NCBI GenBank assembly: GCA_943354045.1
Contig: CALRBF010000001.1
Location: forward strand, 68,046 to 132,045
Length of the DNA stretch: 64,000 nt
Reading direction: 5' to 3'
Source: Parcubacteria group bacterium
GTDB taxonomy: Bacteria; Patescibacteriota; Minisyncoccia; SW-4-49-11
This document shows, piece after piece, positions 21,236-59,717 of this stretch (position 1 is its first letter; every line of letters starts with the position of its first letter). The notes below the pieces were generated by a model, which was not told where the DNA came from, searched no databases, and saw only the letters and a program-made list of their open reading frames with translations. The position numbers were made by a program, and so were the translations under genes.

Positions 21236-21277
21236 TAAAAAAGAAAGAGCTTGATAAGCTCTTTCTTTTTTTATTTT
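21236..21277. terminator. Strong bidirectional intrinsic terminator
   Basis: AAAAAA-GAAAGAGCTT-GAT-AAGCTCTTTC-TTTTTTTATTTT. It is a 10-bp perfect stem flanked by an A-run and a T-run, lying between the nitroreductase gene (plus strand) and the tRNA-Ser-like segment (minus strand). Confidence 0.65.
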
Positions 21278-21298
21278 GGCGGAGAGAAAGGGATTCGG
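21273..21298 (-). repeat. 26-nt direct repeat duplicating the 3' end of tRNA-Ser (acceptor 3' strand plus part of the T-arm); the second copy is at 21477-21502 inside or next to the intact tRNA gene
   Basis: TATTTTGGCGGAGAGAAAGGGATTCG occurs at both sites. The first copy continues into a non-tRNA GC-rich segment. Confidence 0.6.
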
Positions 21299-21449
21299 TC
21301 ACAGATAATTTCCCTGGCGGGAAATTTCCGCGACCCCGTCTCGCCGTGTTCGCCTTGTACTCTGTACAAACTCACACCAGGCTCCGACTTTCTCTTCCCT
21401 ACGCCAGCAACACTGTTGCTAGCTTTCTCTCATCCAATCTAGAATATAT

Positions 21450-21481: not shown

Positions 21482-21572
21482 TGGCGGAGAGAAAGGGATT
21501 CGAACCCTTGATAAGTTTTACCCTATGCCACGTTAGCAGTGTGGTGCTTTCGACCAGCTCAGCCATCTCTCC
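21482..21572 (-). tRNA. tRNA-Ser with anticodon GCU and a long variable arm
   Basis: The minus-strand read is GGAGAGATGGCTGAGCTGGTCGAAAGCACCACACTGCTAACGTGGCATAGGGTAAAACTTATCAAGGGTTCGAATCCCTTTCTCTCCGCCA. The anticodon loop is CTGCTAA (GCT). It has a long variable arm, a T-arm AAGGG/CCCTT and an encoded CCA. Confidence 0.85.
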
Positions 21573-26872: not shown

Positions 26873-27526
26873 TTAATCTTTATGTCTTGGTGGATGCCAT
26901 TTATGTAATGGTTTATAATCTCCTCCAAATATTCCAATATCCATAGTCGCAGTTAATACTGCTCGCATACATTGATATTCTGCATTAAAATCATGAGTAC
27001 CTGCTACCCATTGAGCAGTATTATCATTAGTAATATCTTCTGCATCTAATAAATCCATAATTTCTTCTGGTTGATACCATTGTATTTGTTCTATCTCTTC
27101 TTTTTGTAAAGTAAGTGCTGAGATATCTCCATCAAATACGGTAAGAAAATCTCTTACCCAAACATGAGCTGATTTAATTTTACTGGTTCTCCAAGGAATT
27201 AATTGAAATGGATTTACGCTTAGTCCAATTTCTTCTCCTAGTTCTTTGAGGGCACTAATTTTAAATGATTCCCCCTCAGTTACATGTCCTCCAAAATGAG
27301 TAGACCACGCTCCTGGAGCAAATTCTTTATCAAATGATCTCTGATGACAAAGTATTTGTCCTAAACTGTTGAGTACAAATATATTGGTAGTACGACACCA
27401 TAACCCTTTTTCATAGAGTTCTTTGCGTGAAACATGCTCCCCTGTGGGTTCACCTGTTTCAGGATTAATAACTTGTAGCATTTCTTGTTGTGACATATTA
27501 AGAATAATTATATCATATATTGACAA
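26873..27526 (-). CDS. NUDIX hydrolase family protein (IDI/Nudix-like)
   Basis: The Nudix box is GGHVTEGESFKISALKELGEEIGL. It is convergent with the other Nudix gene. Confidence 0.6.
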   Translation of the reverse strand: MSIYDIIILNMSQQEMLQVINPETGEPTGEHVSRKELYEKGLWCRTTNIFVLNSLGQILCHQRSFDKEFAPGAWSTHFGGHVTEGESFKISALKELGEEIGLSVNPFQLIPWRTSKIKSAHVWVRDFLTVFDGDISALTLQKEEIEQIQWYQPEEIMDLLDAEDITNDNTAQWVAGTHDFNAEYQCMRAVLTATMDIGIFGGDYKPLHKWHPPRHKD

Positions 27527-28013
27527 TTATTGCAAAGATTTATATTCTTTTCCACCCCAACAAGCAAGCTTGTCACCCCTCTCTCCCTACGGGAGATAAA
27601 TTGAGGGGTGTGCCCATAGGGCGGGGTAGAGCACATAATTTGACCCTATAATAAGTATATGTTAGTGTATAAGTGACCACTTGCTGTGTTAATTTGTATC
27701 ACTCAGTTCAAGTCCGACCTCTTGTGCTCATGACTATTCCACCCTGATTAGGAGTTGACTAGCTATGAAACATTTTCCTTGTCCAGCAGAAGAGAATGCT
27801 ATCATTAACTTGATGGCTAGTAGCTCTTCTATCTCAGAATGGAAACGCAATGCTGAGACTATTCGGCATTGGTATAATGGAGCTTTTCCCCCATTCTGGA
27901 CCACCCTACTGTACGAAAAACCCAACAGTGAAAGTCAATCCGTATTTGAAAGAGCCCAATCCAAATGGCGATTGCGTCTATCCGGAAGAAAAGCTGGGCA
28001 TATTTGATTTGAG

Positions 28014-28049
28014 TGTCCCTCATATCATTTCATGAGGGACTTTTTTATT
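28014..28049 (+). terminator. Intrinsic terminator ending the GC-elevated intergenic block
   Basis: CCTCAT-atcatttc-ATGAGG followed by GACTTTTTTATT. Confidence 0.5.
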
Positions 28050-28599
28050 CTAGATACTTCCAATTAATATGCTTTTGCTCTCGAATTTGACAAGTTTTTT
28101 GTACAAATCCTTCTCTTCCCGAACCTACACGATATCGTTGATAATGTTGTGGATTTTTTTCTGAATATTGTTGATGATAATCTTCAGCTGGGTAAAATTC
28201 TGTTCTTGGTAATATATCTACTTGTATTGCTTCTGTATATAGACCGGAATCATCTAATTCTTGCAATGTATCTTGCGCAATATTTTGCTCTAATTGATCT
28301 GAATAATATATTGCTGTTTTATAATTCTCTCCCCTATCTCCAAATTGTCCGCCATCATCAGTGGGGTCAATATGGTCCAGGAAAAATTGCGTTAATAGTC
28401 TAAAATTTGTCTTATTCTCATCATATATTACCTGTACAACTTCGCGATGTTCAGTATTATGACTACTGACATCTTCATAATTAGCAGTCTCAGCCCTACC
28501 TCCCATATAGCCTGATATGACATCCTCTACTCCTGAAGCTTGCCGCAAATCATGCTCTACGCACCAAAAACATCCTCCTGCAAAAACTATTTCTTTCAT
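28045..28599 (-). CDS. msrA: Peptide methionine sulfoxide reductase A
   Basis: The N-terminal active-site motif MKEIVFAGGCFWCVEH is present, and the length and remaining pattern fit MsrA. Confidence 0.9.
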   Translation of the reverse strand: MKEIVFAGGCFWCVEHDLRQASGVEDVISGYMGGRAETANYEDVSSHNTEHREVVQVIYDENKTNFRLLTQFFLDHIDPTDDGGQFGDRGENYKTAIYYSDQLEQNIAQDTLQELDDSGLYTEAIQVDILPRTEFYPAEDYHQQYSEKNPQHYQRYRVGSGREGFVQKTCQIREQKHINWKYLE

Positions 28600-39219: not shown

Positions 39220-39741
39220 TTAAGGAGCGCTATTCAAAAATGTATTAAACAATTCCATATTTGCTGAATATATTTTTGTTTTATTATTGAGTCTTGGGTT
39301 ATTCACTATAACGGTACTTGTTACGGTAATTTTATCAGTAGCATTAAGAACCGTAATATATCGATATAATATATTTGATGCTGGGTCTAATTGATAGCCT
39401 CCAGATACTGTGGGTGTTAATGCATAACTTGAATCAGGGACAAAATTAGATACTATAGAAGCTGGATTACTTAATCCAGCTTCTATATCAGCTTTATAAT
39501 CTACTCGATATATACCATCTGCCAGTCCCGCATTCCATGTCCCTGTATCATTAAGATTACTTTCATATATTGCCCTTACTATTTCTAAGCCCTCTGACAT
39601 TAATAAATTAGCAGTATTGTCATATTGGCTATTATATTTAGCTTTAATAATACCTGCCTGTAAATCTAAAAGTGCTATAAAGGAAATTGACAATATCATT
39701 GTTGCTACTATTGCTCCTACTAATGTTGCTCCTCTTTTCAT
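39220..39741 (-). CDS. Pilin-like protein with a degenerate prepilin signal
   Basis: The N-terminus MKRGATLVGAIVATMILSISFIALL is pilin-like but lacks the Glu at position +5. Confidence 0.35.
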   Translation of the reverse strand: MKRGATLVGAIVATMILSISFIALLDLQAGIIKAKYNSQYDNTANLLMSEGLEIVRAIYESNLNDTGTWNAGLADGIYRVDYKADIEAGLSNPASIVSNFVPDSSYALTPTVSGGYQLDPASNILYRYITVLNATDKITVTSTVIVNNPRLNNKTKIYSANMELFNTFLNSAP

Positions 39742-39971
39742 ATTTATATTTTATATATCTTTTAGTATATCATGTGTTACTATCTATTACTATCCTCTAT
39801 GTCTACGATGTATTTCATCTTATTCATTGTATTTCAATATAATAACGGATACCATTCCTATTGTTAATAAAACTACAGCCCTCCCATACTATATAAAAAC
39901 GAATTTATCCTCGATAATATTAATGCCTAAATCCTATCCTTAGTGTTGCTGGTAAAATAGGGATGACAGTT

Positions 39972-56201: not shown

Positions 56202-56418
56202 TATATATGATTAAAGCAATATCTCCTACCAAAAATAGTCCTATCAATGCCCCCAAGAGTCTAACTAAGAAGCGGGCTTGTACTTCTTGATCAGCTCTAC
56301 TTAGTAGGATATTTTCATCAAGAGTATCATTCTTTATTTCCCGAGCTATTAACACAGCTACAAGGAAAAGAACGGGTTTGAGATTGCGTCGCATGAGTTC
56401 AAAGAGCGGGAATAACAT
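56191..56418 (-). CDS. Small membrane protein at the island edge
   Basis: 75-aa ORF with two hydrophobic segments. Its composition is intermediate between the island and the background. Confidence 0.3.
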   Translation of the reverse strand: MLFPLFELMRRNLKPVLFLVAVLIAREIKNDTLDENILLSRADQEVQARFLVRLLGALIGLFLVGDIALIIYTHL

Positions 56419-56548
56419 GTATTATACCCTATCTTCATGTAAAATGAAAATCCCCAGTTGCAAAGCAACCGGGGACATAGAGTAAAACCAGAAATGGTCA
56501 AGGCGACTGCTCCCCGTGAGGGGTTAGTTGCTATCATTTTAGGTTTTC

Positions 56549-57769
56549 TTAGAAACGGAGGCCAGCGCGAAGCGTGGCGGCAAGACCATCACCGGAGGTG
56601 CCCGAGTTGTACCCGAGAACACCTTCAGCATAGGCGTTCTTGCTGATGCCGACCTGGAGACCACCGCCCACTTGGACATTGTGGTAGCCATCGCCGACCT
56701 CTCCTCGGACCTCTCCGAAGGGACGCCACTGACCACTCTTGGTCAGATAATAACGGCCATAGCCATTGGCATAGGCTCCGGTATTGTTCACACCGACCTC
56801 AGCAAAAACTTCAGTCTGCTGAGTGCGAGACCAGAGACCAGTTTTAGCGTTGAACGCCAAGCCGGACTCGCCAGCCACCGTAGCAGCACCCTCACCCTCA
56901 ACAAAGACAGTAAATTGCTGATACTTGTTCTGAACGAGATCTCGCTCGAGTCGAGCCCTAACACCCAATTGGGTGATCGGCTTGGCCGGGTTTTTCCAGG
57001 TATAGACATAGGGATACTCCATACCCGGACGGCTCTTGCCCTCACCAGAATCGGTATGAGTCAACTGACGGCCGAAGCCGACAACAGACCACCGAGTACG
57101 GGCATCTTGGGAGCGTCCATGAATACCTGCCCAGAATTCCAGACGGGAATCCGTATAGGACCCCTTCCAGATTTCTTTCAGGTTATCACCTGTGAAGCTA
57201 CCCGACTGAGTGACATATTGCACACCACTCATGAAGCCCTTGGCGGTAACAAACTCAGCTTTCACATCGAAGGCCGTATCCCGCGGACGGGAACGGAATT
57301 CTGTATGAAGACGGAATGGGTTCCACTTCCCTTCTCCCTGTTGCGGAATGGAATCCCGAGGAGGGACCACAATTCCAGTATTGGGAGTGGTGGAAGCGGG
57401 AGCAACGGCAACTGGGGCAGCAACCTGAATTACCGGGATAACCGGCGGAGGGCCAGGCTGTTGCTGTGATGAAACACCATTACGCTCAGCTTCCAGACGC
57501 ATGCGAATAGCACGGATCTGAGCTGCTTCCTCTCGAGTCGAGAGACGCCGAACTGAAGCGGTGGCGAGAGTATTGGTGACGACCGTGGAGGTCGCCGATT
57601 GAGGAACTGTAGCGTTCAACTCCTCCGCCTTGACACCCATGGGGGCACCAAGGAGAGGAAGAGCAAAGGCCAACAGTCCCAAGATGGTACGCTTTTTCAC
57701 AGCGACCTCCTGGTAAAGAACCCCCTTACAGTAGCATAAAAACACCATTTTGTCAATAGTTAACAACAT
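56549..57769 (-). CDS. Putative outer-membrane beta-barrel protein with an N-terminal coiled-coil and Pro-rich linker (GC-rich island gene)
   Basis: The signal peptide is KKRTILGLLAFALPLLGAPMGVKA (the true start is probably downstream of the ORF-track ATG). A helical segment (EEAAQIRAIRMRLEAERN) and a PGPPPVIPVIQVAAPVAVAP linker follow. The C-terminal 280 aa show alternating-hydrophobic beta-strands and end in GLRF. A C-terminal Phe is the OMP beta-barrel signature. Confidence 0.5.
   Translation of the reverse strand: MLLTIDKMVFLCYCKGVLYQEVAVKKRTILGLLAFALPLLGAPMGVKAEELNATVPQSATSTVVTNTLATASVRRLSTREEAAQIRAIRMRLEAERNGVSSQQQPGPPPVIPVIQVAAPVAVAPASTTPNTGIVVPPRDSIPQQGEGKWNPFRLHTEFRSRPRDTAFDVKAEFVTAKGFMSGVQYVTQSGSFTGDNLKEIWKGSYTDSRLEFWAGIHGRSQDARTRWSVVGFGRQLTHTDSGEGKSRPGMEYPYVYTWKNPAKPITQLGVRARLERDLVQNKYQQFTVFVEGEGAATVAGESGLAFNAKTGLWSRTQQTEVFAEVGVNNTGAYANGYGRYYLTKSGQWRPFGEVRGEVGDGYHNVQVGGGLQVGISKNAYAEGVLGYNSGTSGDGLAATLRAGLRF
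57730..57760 (-). promoter_or_regulatory. Promoter-like conserved motif upstream of the OMP-like gene
   Basis: In the minus sense the sequence is TTGACAAAATGGTGTTTTTATGCTAC. A near-identical 26-mer lies upstream of the 58908..59717 gene, and a variant (TTGACAAAATTGATAAAATATGCTAG) lies upstream of 57842..58294. Confidence 0.45.
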
Positions 57770-57841
57770 CTCAAATAGTGTCGGAAGAGAATAAAAAAAG
57801 CCCCCACGAGATGTGGGGGTAATTGGTGTTCAGGACTGGCC

Positions 57842-58243
57842 TCAGGGGGCAATGACGGCGTAAGTGTCAGGACTGATCGGTACTGACGGACAGGAGCTTT
57901 GCTGGCACTTGCCGGCCATGATGGTTCCTGCCCAGCCCTGAGGGGGGGCGATACCAACACTGTACCAGGTTTTGCCGTCGGGGAAACGGAAGTTCCCAAA
58001 GGCTCCTGAAGGAGGGCTGGCAACCCGCCCATCGATGACGGTTGCCGTCATCCCCCAATGACGAGGACCAAAGAGAAGCAGGGTGCTCCCATTGGGTACT
58101 CCCGGGGGCACCGAAATGCTTGCCCCCACCTGCTGAGCCGTGCCGGAAGACCCGGAGGGCTGGCTCAGCGGCCTTGCCATGACGGAGGCCATGGGAAGGA
58201 GGATGATGCCGGCCAGGAGGGCCTTGAAAAGAGCTTTCATGGA
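57842..58243 (-). CDS. Secreted protein that is a paralog of the N-terminal domain of the 58908..59717 product
   Basis: The signal peptide is MKALFKALLAGIILLPMASVMA (start set at the internal ATG at 58243). Motifs PGVPNGSTLLLFG, FGNFRFPDGKTWY, PQGWAGTIMAGKC and DTYAVIAP are shared with the larger paralog. Confidence 0.45.
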   Translation of the reverse strand, partial: SMKALFKALLAGIILLPMASVMARPLSQPSGSSGTAQQVGASISVPPGVPNGSTLLLFGPRHWGMTATVIDGRVASPPSGAFGNFRFPDGKTWYSVGIAPPQGWAGTIMAGKCQQSSCPSVPISPDTYAVIAP

Positions 58244-58299
58244 TTTACCACGAAACGACTTAGGGACTCTAGCATATTTTATCAATTTTGTCAAGAGTA

Positions 58300-58345
58300 A
58301 ACAGCATAAAAAAATACCGGCAGCTATTGCTACCGGCTTGAGAAT
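58300..58345 (-). terminator. Intrinsic terminator downstream of the N/Q-rich protein gene
   Basis: In the minus sense the sequence is GCCGGTAGC-aata-GCTGCCGGT (9 bp including 2 G-U pairs) followed by ATTTTTTT. Confidence 0.45.
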
Positions 58346-58363
58346 ATAGTTTTTACCTAGTTC

Positions 58364-58819
58364 CTAGTTACACAATATCCTTACATGATTATTTTGATAT
58401 ACACATCCTCTATTATTCCAAGAAGGAGTATGTTGCAAGTGATAATTATTATTCCAACCTGGATTTTGCTGGTGCAAGGGATAGTTCTGTCTACCCCATC
58501 TTGAACGTGGACGACCCACATAATGAGTAGTATATCCAGTGGAGTTACGTTGCTCATAAAAATACTCACAGGGAAGTCTTGTAGCCTTACGGACCCAATC
58601 ACATGTATCCATATTGGGAATGAGATTATTAGTCAAAATCTGACCCTCATAGTCAACTGTATCCCCACCGCCCTGATTTTGCCAGTAATTATTTTGCTGA
58701 TAGTATCCTCCTCCAAATTGATGTTGAGCCTGAACAGTGGTCGGAATACTCAAAAACAAAGCTGTTGCCAAAGAAGAAATGAGCCTTTGCATGAGAGGTA
58801 AACCTCTAATGTTTGCCAC
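58364..58819 (-). CDS. Small secreted N/Q/Y/W/G-rich protein with 4 Cys
   Basis: The signal peptide is LISSLATALFLSIPTTVQA. The mature part is low-complexity (QHQFGGGYYQQNNYWQNQGGG...WNNNYHLQHTPSWNNRGC). The DNA is noticeably less GC-rich than the flanking island genes. Confidence 0.4.
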   Translation of the reverse strand: MANIRGLPLMQRLISSLATALFLSIPTTVQAQHQFGGGYYQQNNYWQNQGGGDTVDYEGQILTNNLIPNMDTCDWVRKATRLPCEYFYEQRNSTGYTTHYVGRPRSRWGRQNYPLHQQNPGWNNNYHLQHTPSWNNRGCVYQNNHVRILCN

Positions 58820-58907
58820 TTCACCATAACATATATTATTATAAATATCAAGTCAAAAGGAAAAACCGCCAGCACTAGGTGCTGGCGGCGAGTTTTTGGA
58901 ATGGGGG

Positions 58908-59717
58908 TCACTGCGCCTGATAGGCATAGGGTCCGACCGGAGCCGGAGCATTGCCATCAAGCTTGATGACAGAGCCACGAAGCCTTGCGGCTCCGACGGT
59001 GCTCCAAGCTTGGAGTTGACCTCCATTCGCCCGATAGGCAAATTGGAAGACCTGTCCCCGTTGGACTGGGAGGCACCAGGTATTACCACTCACCTTGGTG
59101 AGTGCAACGACTTGTGCCGATCCCCTGCCATTATCTACCACCCCGACGGGAGTGGTGGATGAGAGAAGCCTTCTTACATTGACGAGCCCCTTGGGACCGC
59201 CCGTGAGGAGGCCAACTCCTGGGCGACTGGACCCGGCCCCGGAGAAGGAGATGGAGTTCAACCTCGAGGGAAGTTGAAGGCAGGCTTGCCCGCCTTGCAC
59301 CAACACCGTAAAAGAGCTATTGACTCCATTTGTAGTAATCGGGGCTACCAGGGCGAAAGTATCTCGGTCAAGAAAGGCCTCCACGCCATCACAGGCGAGA
59401 GCGTCCCCTTTGCAATCACCTGCAATGATACGAGCTGCCCAACCCTTGGGAACTCCAGAGAGCTTTTCCACCTGAAACCAGCTTGTGTCTGGTAGAATAA
59501 AGTTACCAAATATCGAGGCGGCCCCGACATCACCAGGAATGGTTACTTTTCCACTCCGAACGGGGTAGACTTTCTCCCATCCTTGTCCAAAAAGGACAAG
59601 ACGGGAACCGTCAGGGACTCCCGAAGGTGCCGGGAGGGTATAAGACTTCCCTTGTGCCACCGCAGGAATGGCGGTGAAGATGAGGGCAAGCGCCCCCACA
59701 AATCTGAAAATGTTCAT
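58908..59717 (-). CDS. Secreted two-domain protein; its N-terminal domain is paralogous to the 57842..58243 product
   Basis: The signal peptide is MNIFRFVGALALIFTAIPAVAQG. Motifs PSGVPDGSRLVLFG, FGNFILPDTSWF, PKGWAARIIAGDC and DRDTFALVAP are shared with the smaller paralog. Confidence 0.45.
   Translation of the reverse strand: MNIFRFVGALALIFTAIPAVAQGKSYTLPAPSGVPDGSRLVLFGQGWEKVYPVRSGKVTIPGDVGAASIFGNFILPDTSWFQVEKLSGVPKGWAARIIAGDCKGDALACDGVEAFLDRDTFALVAPITTNGVNSSFTVLVQGGQACLQLPSRLNSISFSGAGSSRPGVGLLTGGPKGLVNVRRLLSSTTPVGVVDNGRGSAQVVALTKVSGNTWCLPVQRGQVFQFAYRANGGQLQAWSTVGAARLRGSVIKLDGNAPAPVGPYAYQAQ

Follow-up and report, generated by a model that had tools for sequence, protein, structure and literature searches.

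What does a G+C-rich, hairpin-rich block encode in the AT-rich chromosome of a bacterium of the candidate phyla radiation (CPR)? The block in question occupies positions 27527–28049 of a 64,000-nt stretch of DNA from a Parcubacteria group bacterium (contig CALRBF010000001.1; this whole stretch is hereafter the window) and lies between a Nudix hydrolase gene and msrA. A first reading, made from the letters alone (the sequence-only reading), took the block for intergenic and proposed a structured RNA—RNase P RNA, tmRNA, 6S RNA, a group I intron or a riboswitch—with a small acquired gene as the alternative. The compositional signal that prompted those proposals is borne out: the block has a G+C content of 42.1%, slightly below the 'roughly 45%' first estimated, against a mean of 34.3% for the window, and 5.8% of 523-nt windows reach or exceed this value. 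Its features also lie where that reading placed them, namely a bulged hairpin (27574–27610), a T-loop-like string (27705–27719), a terminator and an open reading frame (ORF) of 80 codons (27765–28007). The word intergenic does not hold, as 243 of the 523 nt, nearly half, are a real gene. The block probably represents an autonomous cassette for a small gene, carried on the + strand of the chromosome of a member of the Patescibacteria (CPR) and made up of promoter, leader, ORF and terminator, with the hairpin block as a separate entity.

First, the ORF is a coding gene under purifying selection. For comparison we fetched the DNA of 11 distinct related loci (cited by L numbers where they must be told apart) and compared the ORF in 10. 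It is intact in these 10 loci, with 80 (or 82) codons and no frameshift, and its frame (+1) is the only one free of stops in all of them, every other frame being interrupted in at least some. Pairwise ratios of nonsynonymous to synonymous substitution (dN/dS) range from 0.15 to 0.65, with dS up to 1.1. A Shine–Dalgarno (SD) sequence, AGGAG at 27750–27754, stands 10 nt upstream of the ATG and is invariant in all loci, as expected of a functional ribosome-binding site. The gene is unusual in composition, with 43% G+C and a third-position G+C content (GC3) of 0.36, compared with 0.16–0.28 in seven neighbouring genes, and GC3 stays raised in most relatives. We considered whether the ORF could be an artefact of G+C-rich sequence; the dN/dS values and the unique open frame in 10 loci rule this out.

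Second, the gene is framed by transcription signals of its own, which are conserved among the loci whereas the hairpin block is variable. A predicted sigma-70-type promoter with an extended −10 element precedes it (Table 1): TTTGACCC, the TG and the TA..T of the −10 hexamer are invariant in 11 loci, and the spacer varies. Promoter and leader both fall within a conserved upstream part of about 125 nt before the ATG, which every locus has from ATTTGACCC on. At the other end, a G+C-rich hairpin followed by a T-run, the signature of an intrinsic terminator, is present in 10 of 10 loci and has been kept through compensatory changes (GUCCCUCAU/AUGAGGGAC, AGUCUCUUG/CAGGAGACU and GUCCUUCAU/AUGAAGGAU); in the window it directly abuts msrA. 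Judged from these signals, transcription would start near position 27675, run through a leader of roughly 90 nt and the 80 codons, and halt at the hairpin and T-run; the product would be a small protein with four helices, from a family not yet described.

Third, the protein belongs to a recognizable family. Among 5.8 billion proteins there are 10 homologues with 62–94% identity, of which nine have 80 aa and the tenth has 82, and W, P and F columns are invariant in them; genome scans yielded a copy that is 48% identical (L003), and the protein of locus L007 is 84% identical to that of the window. AlphaFold2, given an alignment of 21 sequences, returns a confident four-helix model with a basic C-terminal tail (predicted local distance difference test score, pLDDT, 84; predicted template modelling score, pTM, 0.70). 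Foldseek finds no significant match to this model in PDB or BFVD, and sequence and profile searches with the protein and its distant relatives give none above noise in Pfam, PHROGs, NCBIfam or PADLOC, the PDB profile search being blank as well. A profile search of 1.8 billion representatives and then of 5.8 billion proteins gathered 69 proteins, all unannotated and mostly 52–80 aa long (a few are longer, with the domain twice or with extensions), that share the motif LMxSSxSxxEWxxNxxx(I/V)KxxxxGxYPxFW. In three of the three contigs inspected, the distant members lie in phage-like, co-directional arrays of tiny ORFs that include FtsK/SpoIIIE-like, ParB_N or Phage_L5_gp82 genes and that therefore point to a phage or mobile-element context. 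A tblastn search of cultured phages and PLSDB plasmids found no real relative, only four matches with E values of 0.1–0.4 to Propionibacterium phage endolysins, and an IMG/VR scan with protein P0027 gave nothing. Two giant proteins (P0013 and P0026) were discarded as family matches because the matches lie in ankyrin or immunoglobulin (Ig) repeats, as was metagenome locus L004, a false match in G+C-rich, low-complexity sequence.

How did this gene come to stand where it does? Its relatives are found in metagenome-assembled genomes of Paceibacteria and 'Saccharibacteria' (genome scans), which places the lineage in the Patescibacteria. Wherever the contig is long enough, the relatives keep the order Nudix gene, 80-aa gene, msrA and then tsaD; the exception is L013, in which a different small + strand gene stands in the place of the Nudix gene. 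In the window, the 80-aa gene is opposed to both neighbours, divergent from the Nudix gene and convergent with msrA. This orientation, its own promoter and terminator, its atypical composition and the phage-like small-ORF arrays around its distant relatives recall the moron-type cassettes of prophages and mobile elements, as does a second, unrelated cassette of 66–68 aa that occupies the same slot in some relatives. The gene differs from such cassettes in lying outside any recognizable prophage and at the same chromosomal position in related genomes; moreover, it is present in every related locus, with none of the presence/absence polymorphism among close relatives that marks a moron. Given this shared position and a dS of about 1, the cassette is an old, fixed resident under purifying selection and not a recent passenger. 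Thus, the earlier suggestion of a small acquired gene stands as regards the gene, with its conserved ORF, purifying selection and own promoter, SD and terminator. As regards its acquisition, GC3 and the phage-like distant relatives have to be weighed against the shared slot, and an ancient acquisition, long fixed in the CPR clade, is plausible.

The second cassette merits description in its own right. It is an autonomous mini-gene between the 80-aa gene and msrA, absent in the window, with its own terminator and a promoter-like site (TTGACT, 17 nt, TATACT). Its three versions show weak similarity to one another and are unrelated to the 80-aa protein. Because this unrelated cassette fills the slot in some relatives, the gap between the Nudix gene and msrA is, on our interpretation, a landing pad for mini-genes.

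The hairpins that first drew attention to the block lie upstream of the promoter and have a different history. Locus L007 reads TTGCA-ATAATTTG-ACCC, an empty site, and L001 reads TTGCA-ATAATTTG-(114 nt)-ATAATTTG-ACCC, so that L001 carries an insert bordered by a direct repeat of 8 bp. In the window the flanks of the insertion form a version of this repeat in which the left copy has decayed, AAGATTTA at 27535–27542 and ATAATTTG at 27635–27642. The 81-nt core (27551–27631) is predicted to fold into a four-way junction of −41 kcal/mol, in which the stem TCCACCCC/GGGGTAGA closes a set of three arms; this closing stem is at the same time an 8-bp terminal inverted repeat, TCCACCCC/GGGGTGGA. In stability this core ranks fourth among 90-nt stretches across the 64 kb, and the whole 226-nt upstream region has a folding z-score of −3.0. 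Between loci, the fold energy of the insertion ranges from −27 to −56 kcal/mol.

This element is anything but constant. It is missing in 3 of the 11 related loci (L007, L008 and L013), shrinks to about 70 nt in L012 (with a four-way core of 60 nt) and reaches about 300 nt, in composite form, in L005. The bulged hairpin noted at the outset is arm 2 of the insertion, its hypervariable part: the inner sequence of this arm is unlike among the window, L001 and L012, and its loop of about 30 nt, held between 15-bp inverted repeats, is flipped in L009–L011 relative to L001, L002 and L014 (27 of 30 positions match the reverse complement, versus 16 of 34 for the direct comparison). The stems remain complementary even though their sequences diverge between loci. 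The variable length, the losses, the loop inversion and the direct repeat suit a palindromic DNA element, so we do not regard the insertion as a conserved RNA gene. The hairpin block fits a dispensable palindromic DNA element, either resembling a miniature inverted-repeat transposable element (MITE) or simply prone to deletion, that lies outside the conserved unit. A palindrome of about 90 nt would have landed in the −35 region, giving rise to the 8-bp direct repeat; it can be lost precisely, and it evolves through insertions and deletions and through inversion of the hairpin loop.

Is the element mobile? A mobile origin is suggested by two features, its direct repeat and its terminal inverted repeat. 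Like MITE and repetitive extragenic palindromic (REP)-like palindromes such as Correia/NEMIS, RPE and ERIC, it is short (about 90–120 nt), G+C-rich and highly self-complementary; has an 8-bp terminal inverted repeat and an 8-bp flanking direct repeat, so that comparison of filled L001 with empty L007 reveals both the inverted termini and the target-site duplication of a MITE; is present or absent among close relatives; and sits in a promoter region, restoring the −35 hexamer there and supplying a −10-like one. It differs in its predicted four-way fold, which is not a simple hairpin, and in its copy number, and it is not known to resemble a described family in sequence. The multiple dispersed copies typical of a MITE are not found: neither the 64 kb of the window nor the fetched loci, some 80 kb in all, hold a second copy, whether at up to 3 mismatches or with blastn-short. 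A scan of IMG/VR with the insertion pattern produced two matches, both within coding sequence of G+C-rich phages and attributable to chance. The loop inversion has a parallel elsewhere. Flips of hairpin loops are described for plastid non-coding DNA. As in the hairpin-associated 'minute inversions' of chloroplasts (a term used in PMC6005162 and PMC2695775), the loop of the element, about 30 nt long and enclosed by inverted repeats of 15 bp, is flipped between related genomes; the difference is that this flip occurs in a bacterial intergenic element.

The alternative that survives best is that the palindrome never moved: ancestral, functionless and prone to deletion, it would have disappeared more than once through slippage from one short direct repeat to the other. 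Deletion is classically frequent at palindromes bordered by such repeats, and the single-copy state of the element in the 64 kb and in all fetched loci is what this account expects, as is the nesting of L007, which lacks the element, among close relatives that carry it. The 8-bp terminal inverted repeat together with the 8-bp direct repeat is, however, the standard footprint of transposition, and L005 has at the same point an insert of about 300 nt with another composition and a different left flank, suggesting repeated insertion or exchange. We therefore treat loss of an immobile palindrome as a distinct possibility that falls somewhat short of probable.

Locus L005 is unusual in further respects. 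Its protein is 94% identical to that of the window, yet its Nudix-proximal flank resembles that of L008 (65% protein identity) and not that of the window, which suggests recombination inside the intergenic region between the Nudix gene and the 80-aa gene. Within its enlarged insert (L005 2818–2844) lies a 27-nt string, TCTACGATGTAT(C/T)TCATCTTATTCA, of which a 96% identical copy stands at 39800–39826 of the window, in an intergenic position upstream of a minus-strand gene (39220–39741); the string may be a short intergenic or promoter motif that the two share, or a fragment that moves between intergenic regions.

Fourth, the leader between the predicted transcription start and the ATG is the most tightly conserved segment of the three compared. 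The leader has a mean pairwise identity of 0.88; the figure is 0.77 for the coding sequence and 0.71 for third codon positions, and the excess over the coding sequence implies strong purifying selection on the leader. It is found in all loci, with or without the insertion, and is single-copy in the window. RNAalifold predicts two stem-loops. In the first, ACUUG and CAAGU pair and enclose a small inner hairpin, which both leader types can form in different registers; this stem-loop includes the T-loop-like GTTCAAGTCC (string AGTTCAAGTCCGACC at 27705–27719), and both its strands are invariant and so provide no covariation. The second, a long imperfect hairpin, would occlude the SD sequence and the AUG at 27765. 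Five centroid folds contain it, those of the window, L008, L012, L013 and L003; in L012, in which its 3′ strand is rewritten, a hairpin still forms, in a new register. Variable columns are rarer among paired than unpaired leader positions (8 of 43 versus 23 of 50, p = 0.008), a comparison that is partly circular as the fold was predicted from the same alignment.

From these patterns we infer both a fold and a regulatory role: the leader is most likely a translational operator acting at the RNA level, whose 3′ half would form a hairpin that buries the SD sequence and start codon, and whose 5′ half (ACUUG...CAAGU) would be the part acted on by a ligand, a protein (possibly the gene's own product) or temperature. 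In this it resembles the SD-sequestering operators known from riboswitch platforms, RNA thermometers and autoregulated ribosomal-protein leaders, sharing with them a 3′ half that can pair across SD and AUG and a conservation above that of the coding sequence; it differs from them in having no Rfam match at E ≤ 10, no covariation, no ligand-related gene context and an ordinary folding energy. More tentatively, and as a possibility that we would not call probable, the leader may be an undescribed cis-regulatory RNA, be it a riboswitch or an operator to which the 80-aa protein itself binds, that gates translation of a domesticated phage-derived protein from a new and widespread small-domain family.

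Some results weigh against this picture. Compensatory changes are seen at none of the predicted leader pairs, and the leader does no better than the shuffle controls, in an alignment with little variation. The folding energy of the leader is ordinary in four of five loci (z of +0.5 to −0.2 relative to shuffles; −1.8 in L008). With both the energy and the covariation signal absent, the explanation by RNA structure leans on conservation alone. The palindromic element, for its part, is single-copy in all the sequence searched. We also note that the leader pattern matched 23 times in a scan of IMG/VR, in no case ahead of an SD box, as chance predicts for 18 fixed bases and a variable gap.

Could the leader instead be conserved as DNA, with ACTTG (27679) and CAAGT (27709) as the operator half-sites of a transcription factor that blocks elongation or initiation? 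The invariant boxes of 8–10 nt, CCACTTGC and GTTCAAGTCC, do hold a perfect inverted repeat, and the missing covariation and thermodynamic signals for an RNA fold would be natural. Nevertheless, the boxes stand 21 to 24 nt apart, depending on the locus, a variation that is awkward for a fixed protein–DNA geometry and harmless for a hairpin loop; the conservation extends across the SD and start region, where constraint at the RNA level is expected; and the one-sided changes in stem-loop 2 are G–U-compatible on the + strand only. A DNA operator is, on balance, rather unlikely.

We regard as improbable a further alternative, in which a five-codon upstream open reading frame (uORF) controls the main ORF. 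The frame ATG ACT ATT CCA CCC TGA forms the 5′ strand of stem-loop 2, so that a ribosome pausing at Pro-Pro-stop could melt this hairpin and permit initiation or re-initiation, and expression would depend on the activity of elongation factor P (EF-P) or release factor 2 (RF2), or on a ligand, as in TnaC-type and Erm-type leaders. A C-terminal Pro-Pro before UGA is a poor termination context, and both third-position variants in the frame are synonymous (ATT>ATC and CCA>CCC), the one amino-acid change being Thr to Ser. However, no SD sequence precedes the uORF, its ATG is replaced by ATA in L003, and the conservation covers the entire leader, beyond the uORF.

Finally, there is the structured RNA with which the locus was first associated. 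With Rfam 15 at the gathering score, cmscan over the whole window reports four tRNAs elsewhere and nothing in the block, and at a permissive E ≤ 10 over 27400–28150 it gives three chance-level matches of 15–18 bits, to small nucleolar RNA (snoRNA), microRNA (miRNA) and Lnt models. ARAGORN likewise calls neither a tRNA nor a tmRNA in 27.5–28.1 kb, its four tRNA calls lying in other parts of the window. The RNA classes named by the sequence-only reading thus go without a match in the block. Comparison with relatives is no kinder to them: the hairpin block is absent or variable there, lacking the conserved presence and structure in orthologous loci that mark a structured-RNA gene. That the block, or at least the hairpin cluster at 27551–27631, is a structured non-coding RNA gene expressed from the TTGACA/TATTCT site is very unlikely. 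In its favour are the high stability of the four-way fold (81 nt at −41 kcal/mol, in a region with z −3.0), a good promoter-like site immediately upstream that is retained in loci carrying this form of the element, and stems that stay complementary despite sequence differences between loci. Against it stand the negative Rfam, tRNA and tmRNA searches, the loss of the element in 3 of 11 loci (including L007, with its closely related protein), a fourfold variation in size, a loop inversion that as a DNA-level event preserves the palindrome and not the RNA sequence, and the lack of a terminator of its own ahead of the next promoter.

The T-loop-like string admits a similar answer. GTTCAAGTC (27706–27714) fits the T-loop consensus G-TTCRANN-C of tRNA and tmRNA T-arms; it differs from them in having no T-stem (of five flanking pairs, the window allows just three and the L003/L013 type none), and the block has neither acceptor strand nor CCA, in keeping with the negative ARAGORN and Rfam searches. 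More plausibly the motif pairs with ACUUG at 27679 than forms a tRNA arm. We also considered a displaced tRNA 3′ half, left as the remnant of an attachment (att) site, and rejected it: there is no nearby tRNA and no T-stem, and the L003/L013 variant has no acceptor-like strand.

Table 1 Features in and around the block, with positions in the window unless a locus is named
Feature	Position	Strand	Basis and details
Nudix hydrolase gene, upstream neighbour	26873..27496	−	Pfam NUDIX, E 1e-15
Promoter-like site of Nudix gene	27507..27535	−	TTGCAA, 17 nt, TG-n-TATAAT; consensus scan; same hexamers in L007
Promoter-like site upstream of insertion	27520..27548	+	TTGACA, 17 nt, TATTCT; 10/12 positions match in consensus scan
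Variable palindromic insertion, 92 nt	27543..27634	not assigned	Filled versus empty sites in relatives
Bulged hairpin	27574..27610	+	CACCCCTC-TCTCCC-TAC-GGGAGA-TAAATT-GAGGGGTG
Predicted promoter of 80-aa gene, sigma-70-type, extended −10	27640..27668	+	−35 TTGACC 27640–45, 17-nt spacer, TG 27660–61, −10 TAGTGT 27663–68 (TGn-TAGTGT)
5′ leader, ~90 nt, almost invariant among relatives	27675..27764	+	Start inferred from promoter spacing
Predicted stem-loop 1	27679..27713	+	RNAalifold; ACUUG 27679–83 with CAAGU 27709–13
Predicted stem-loop 2	27723..27772	+	RNAalifold; UUCAUG..CUA..CCCU with AGG.G..UAG..UAUGAA
Possible mini-uORF (M-T/S-I-P-P-stop)	27730..27747	+	Ends 2 nt before SD; a weak idea
Gene for 80-aa protein, uncharacterized family	27765..28007	+	Homologues, dN/dS, open frame
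Intrinsic terminator	28015..28046	+	9-bp G+C-rich stem, 8-nt loop (stem-loop 28015–28040), T-run
msrA, downstream neighbour, convergent with 80-aa gene	28045..28599	−	Pfam PMSR, E 2e-54
Second mini-gene, copies in relatives	L009 1840–2040; L012 953–1156; L013 1562–1768

Two further promoter-like sites lie at the upstream edge of the block. In the one on the + strand, the −10 hexamer TATTCT is formed by the first 6 nt of the insertion, and the site would read into the element. It is kept where this form of the insertion is present (the window, L001, L002, L009–L011, L012 and L014) and is absent in empty-site L007; the insertion could be transcribed from it into a longer 5′ untranslated region. 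The other belongs to the Nudix gene, which probably begins with the ATG at 27496 and would then encode 207 aa, the length called in L007, L008 and L009. The predicted promoter ends just 10 nt before this ATG, which would imply a leaderless or almost leaderless mRNA.

Elsewhere in the window, two places stand out in a scan for stable folds. A G+C-rich segment of 161 nt at 21277–21437 (− strand) lies directly downstream of tRNA-Ser(GCT) (21482–21572) and an AT-rich palindromic terminator. The 3′ end of the tRNA-Ser recurs as the final 21 nt of the segment, CGAATCCCTTTCTCTCCGCCA, and the 5′ end of the segment, GAGAGAAAG, pairs with this repeat. The segment reaches a folding energy of −73 kcal/mol (z = −6.6), which none of 200 shuffles equals, is followed by a terminator-like hairpin of its own, and has no Rfam family and no ARAGORN call. 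Two readings are open to it, a structured RNA gene derived from a tRNA and an att-type duplication from an integrative element, and as a candidate for an unknown RNA it ranks above the block at 27527–28049. The second place is a 3.3-kb island at about 56400–59700, with 55–70% G+C in a 34% genome, in which most of the window's most stable local folds lie. It has no Rfam match at E ≤ 0.1, and its five ORFs have no Pfam match. A 406-aa ORF (56549–57769, − strand) has 43 homologues of similar length with 35–100% identity, and the ORF next to it opens with the signal-peptide-like MKALFKALLAGIILLPMA; the island encodes conserved hypothetical proteins of aberrant composition, probably secreted, and not RNA.

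For the bacterium, then, a G+C-rich, hairpin-rich island in an AT-rich CPR genome here amounts to a small gene plus a dispensable palindrome and conceals no missing housekeeping RNA. Neither a small-protein family nor a conserved leader is surprising in kind. The 80-aa protein represents an undescribed small-protein family and offers a handle on a small domain shared by phages and CPR bacteria. To our knowledge, almost no regulation has been studied in this phylum, and a leader more conserved than the protein that it precedes is a reasonable new candidate for a regulatory RNA there.

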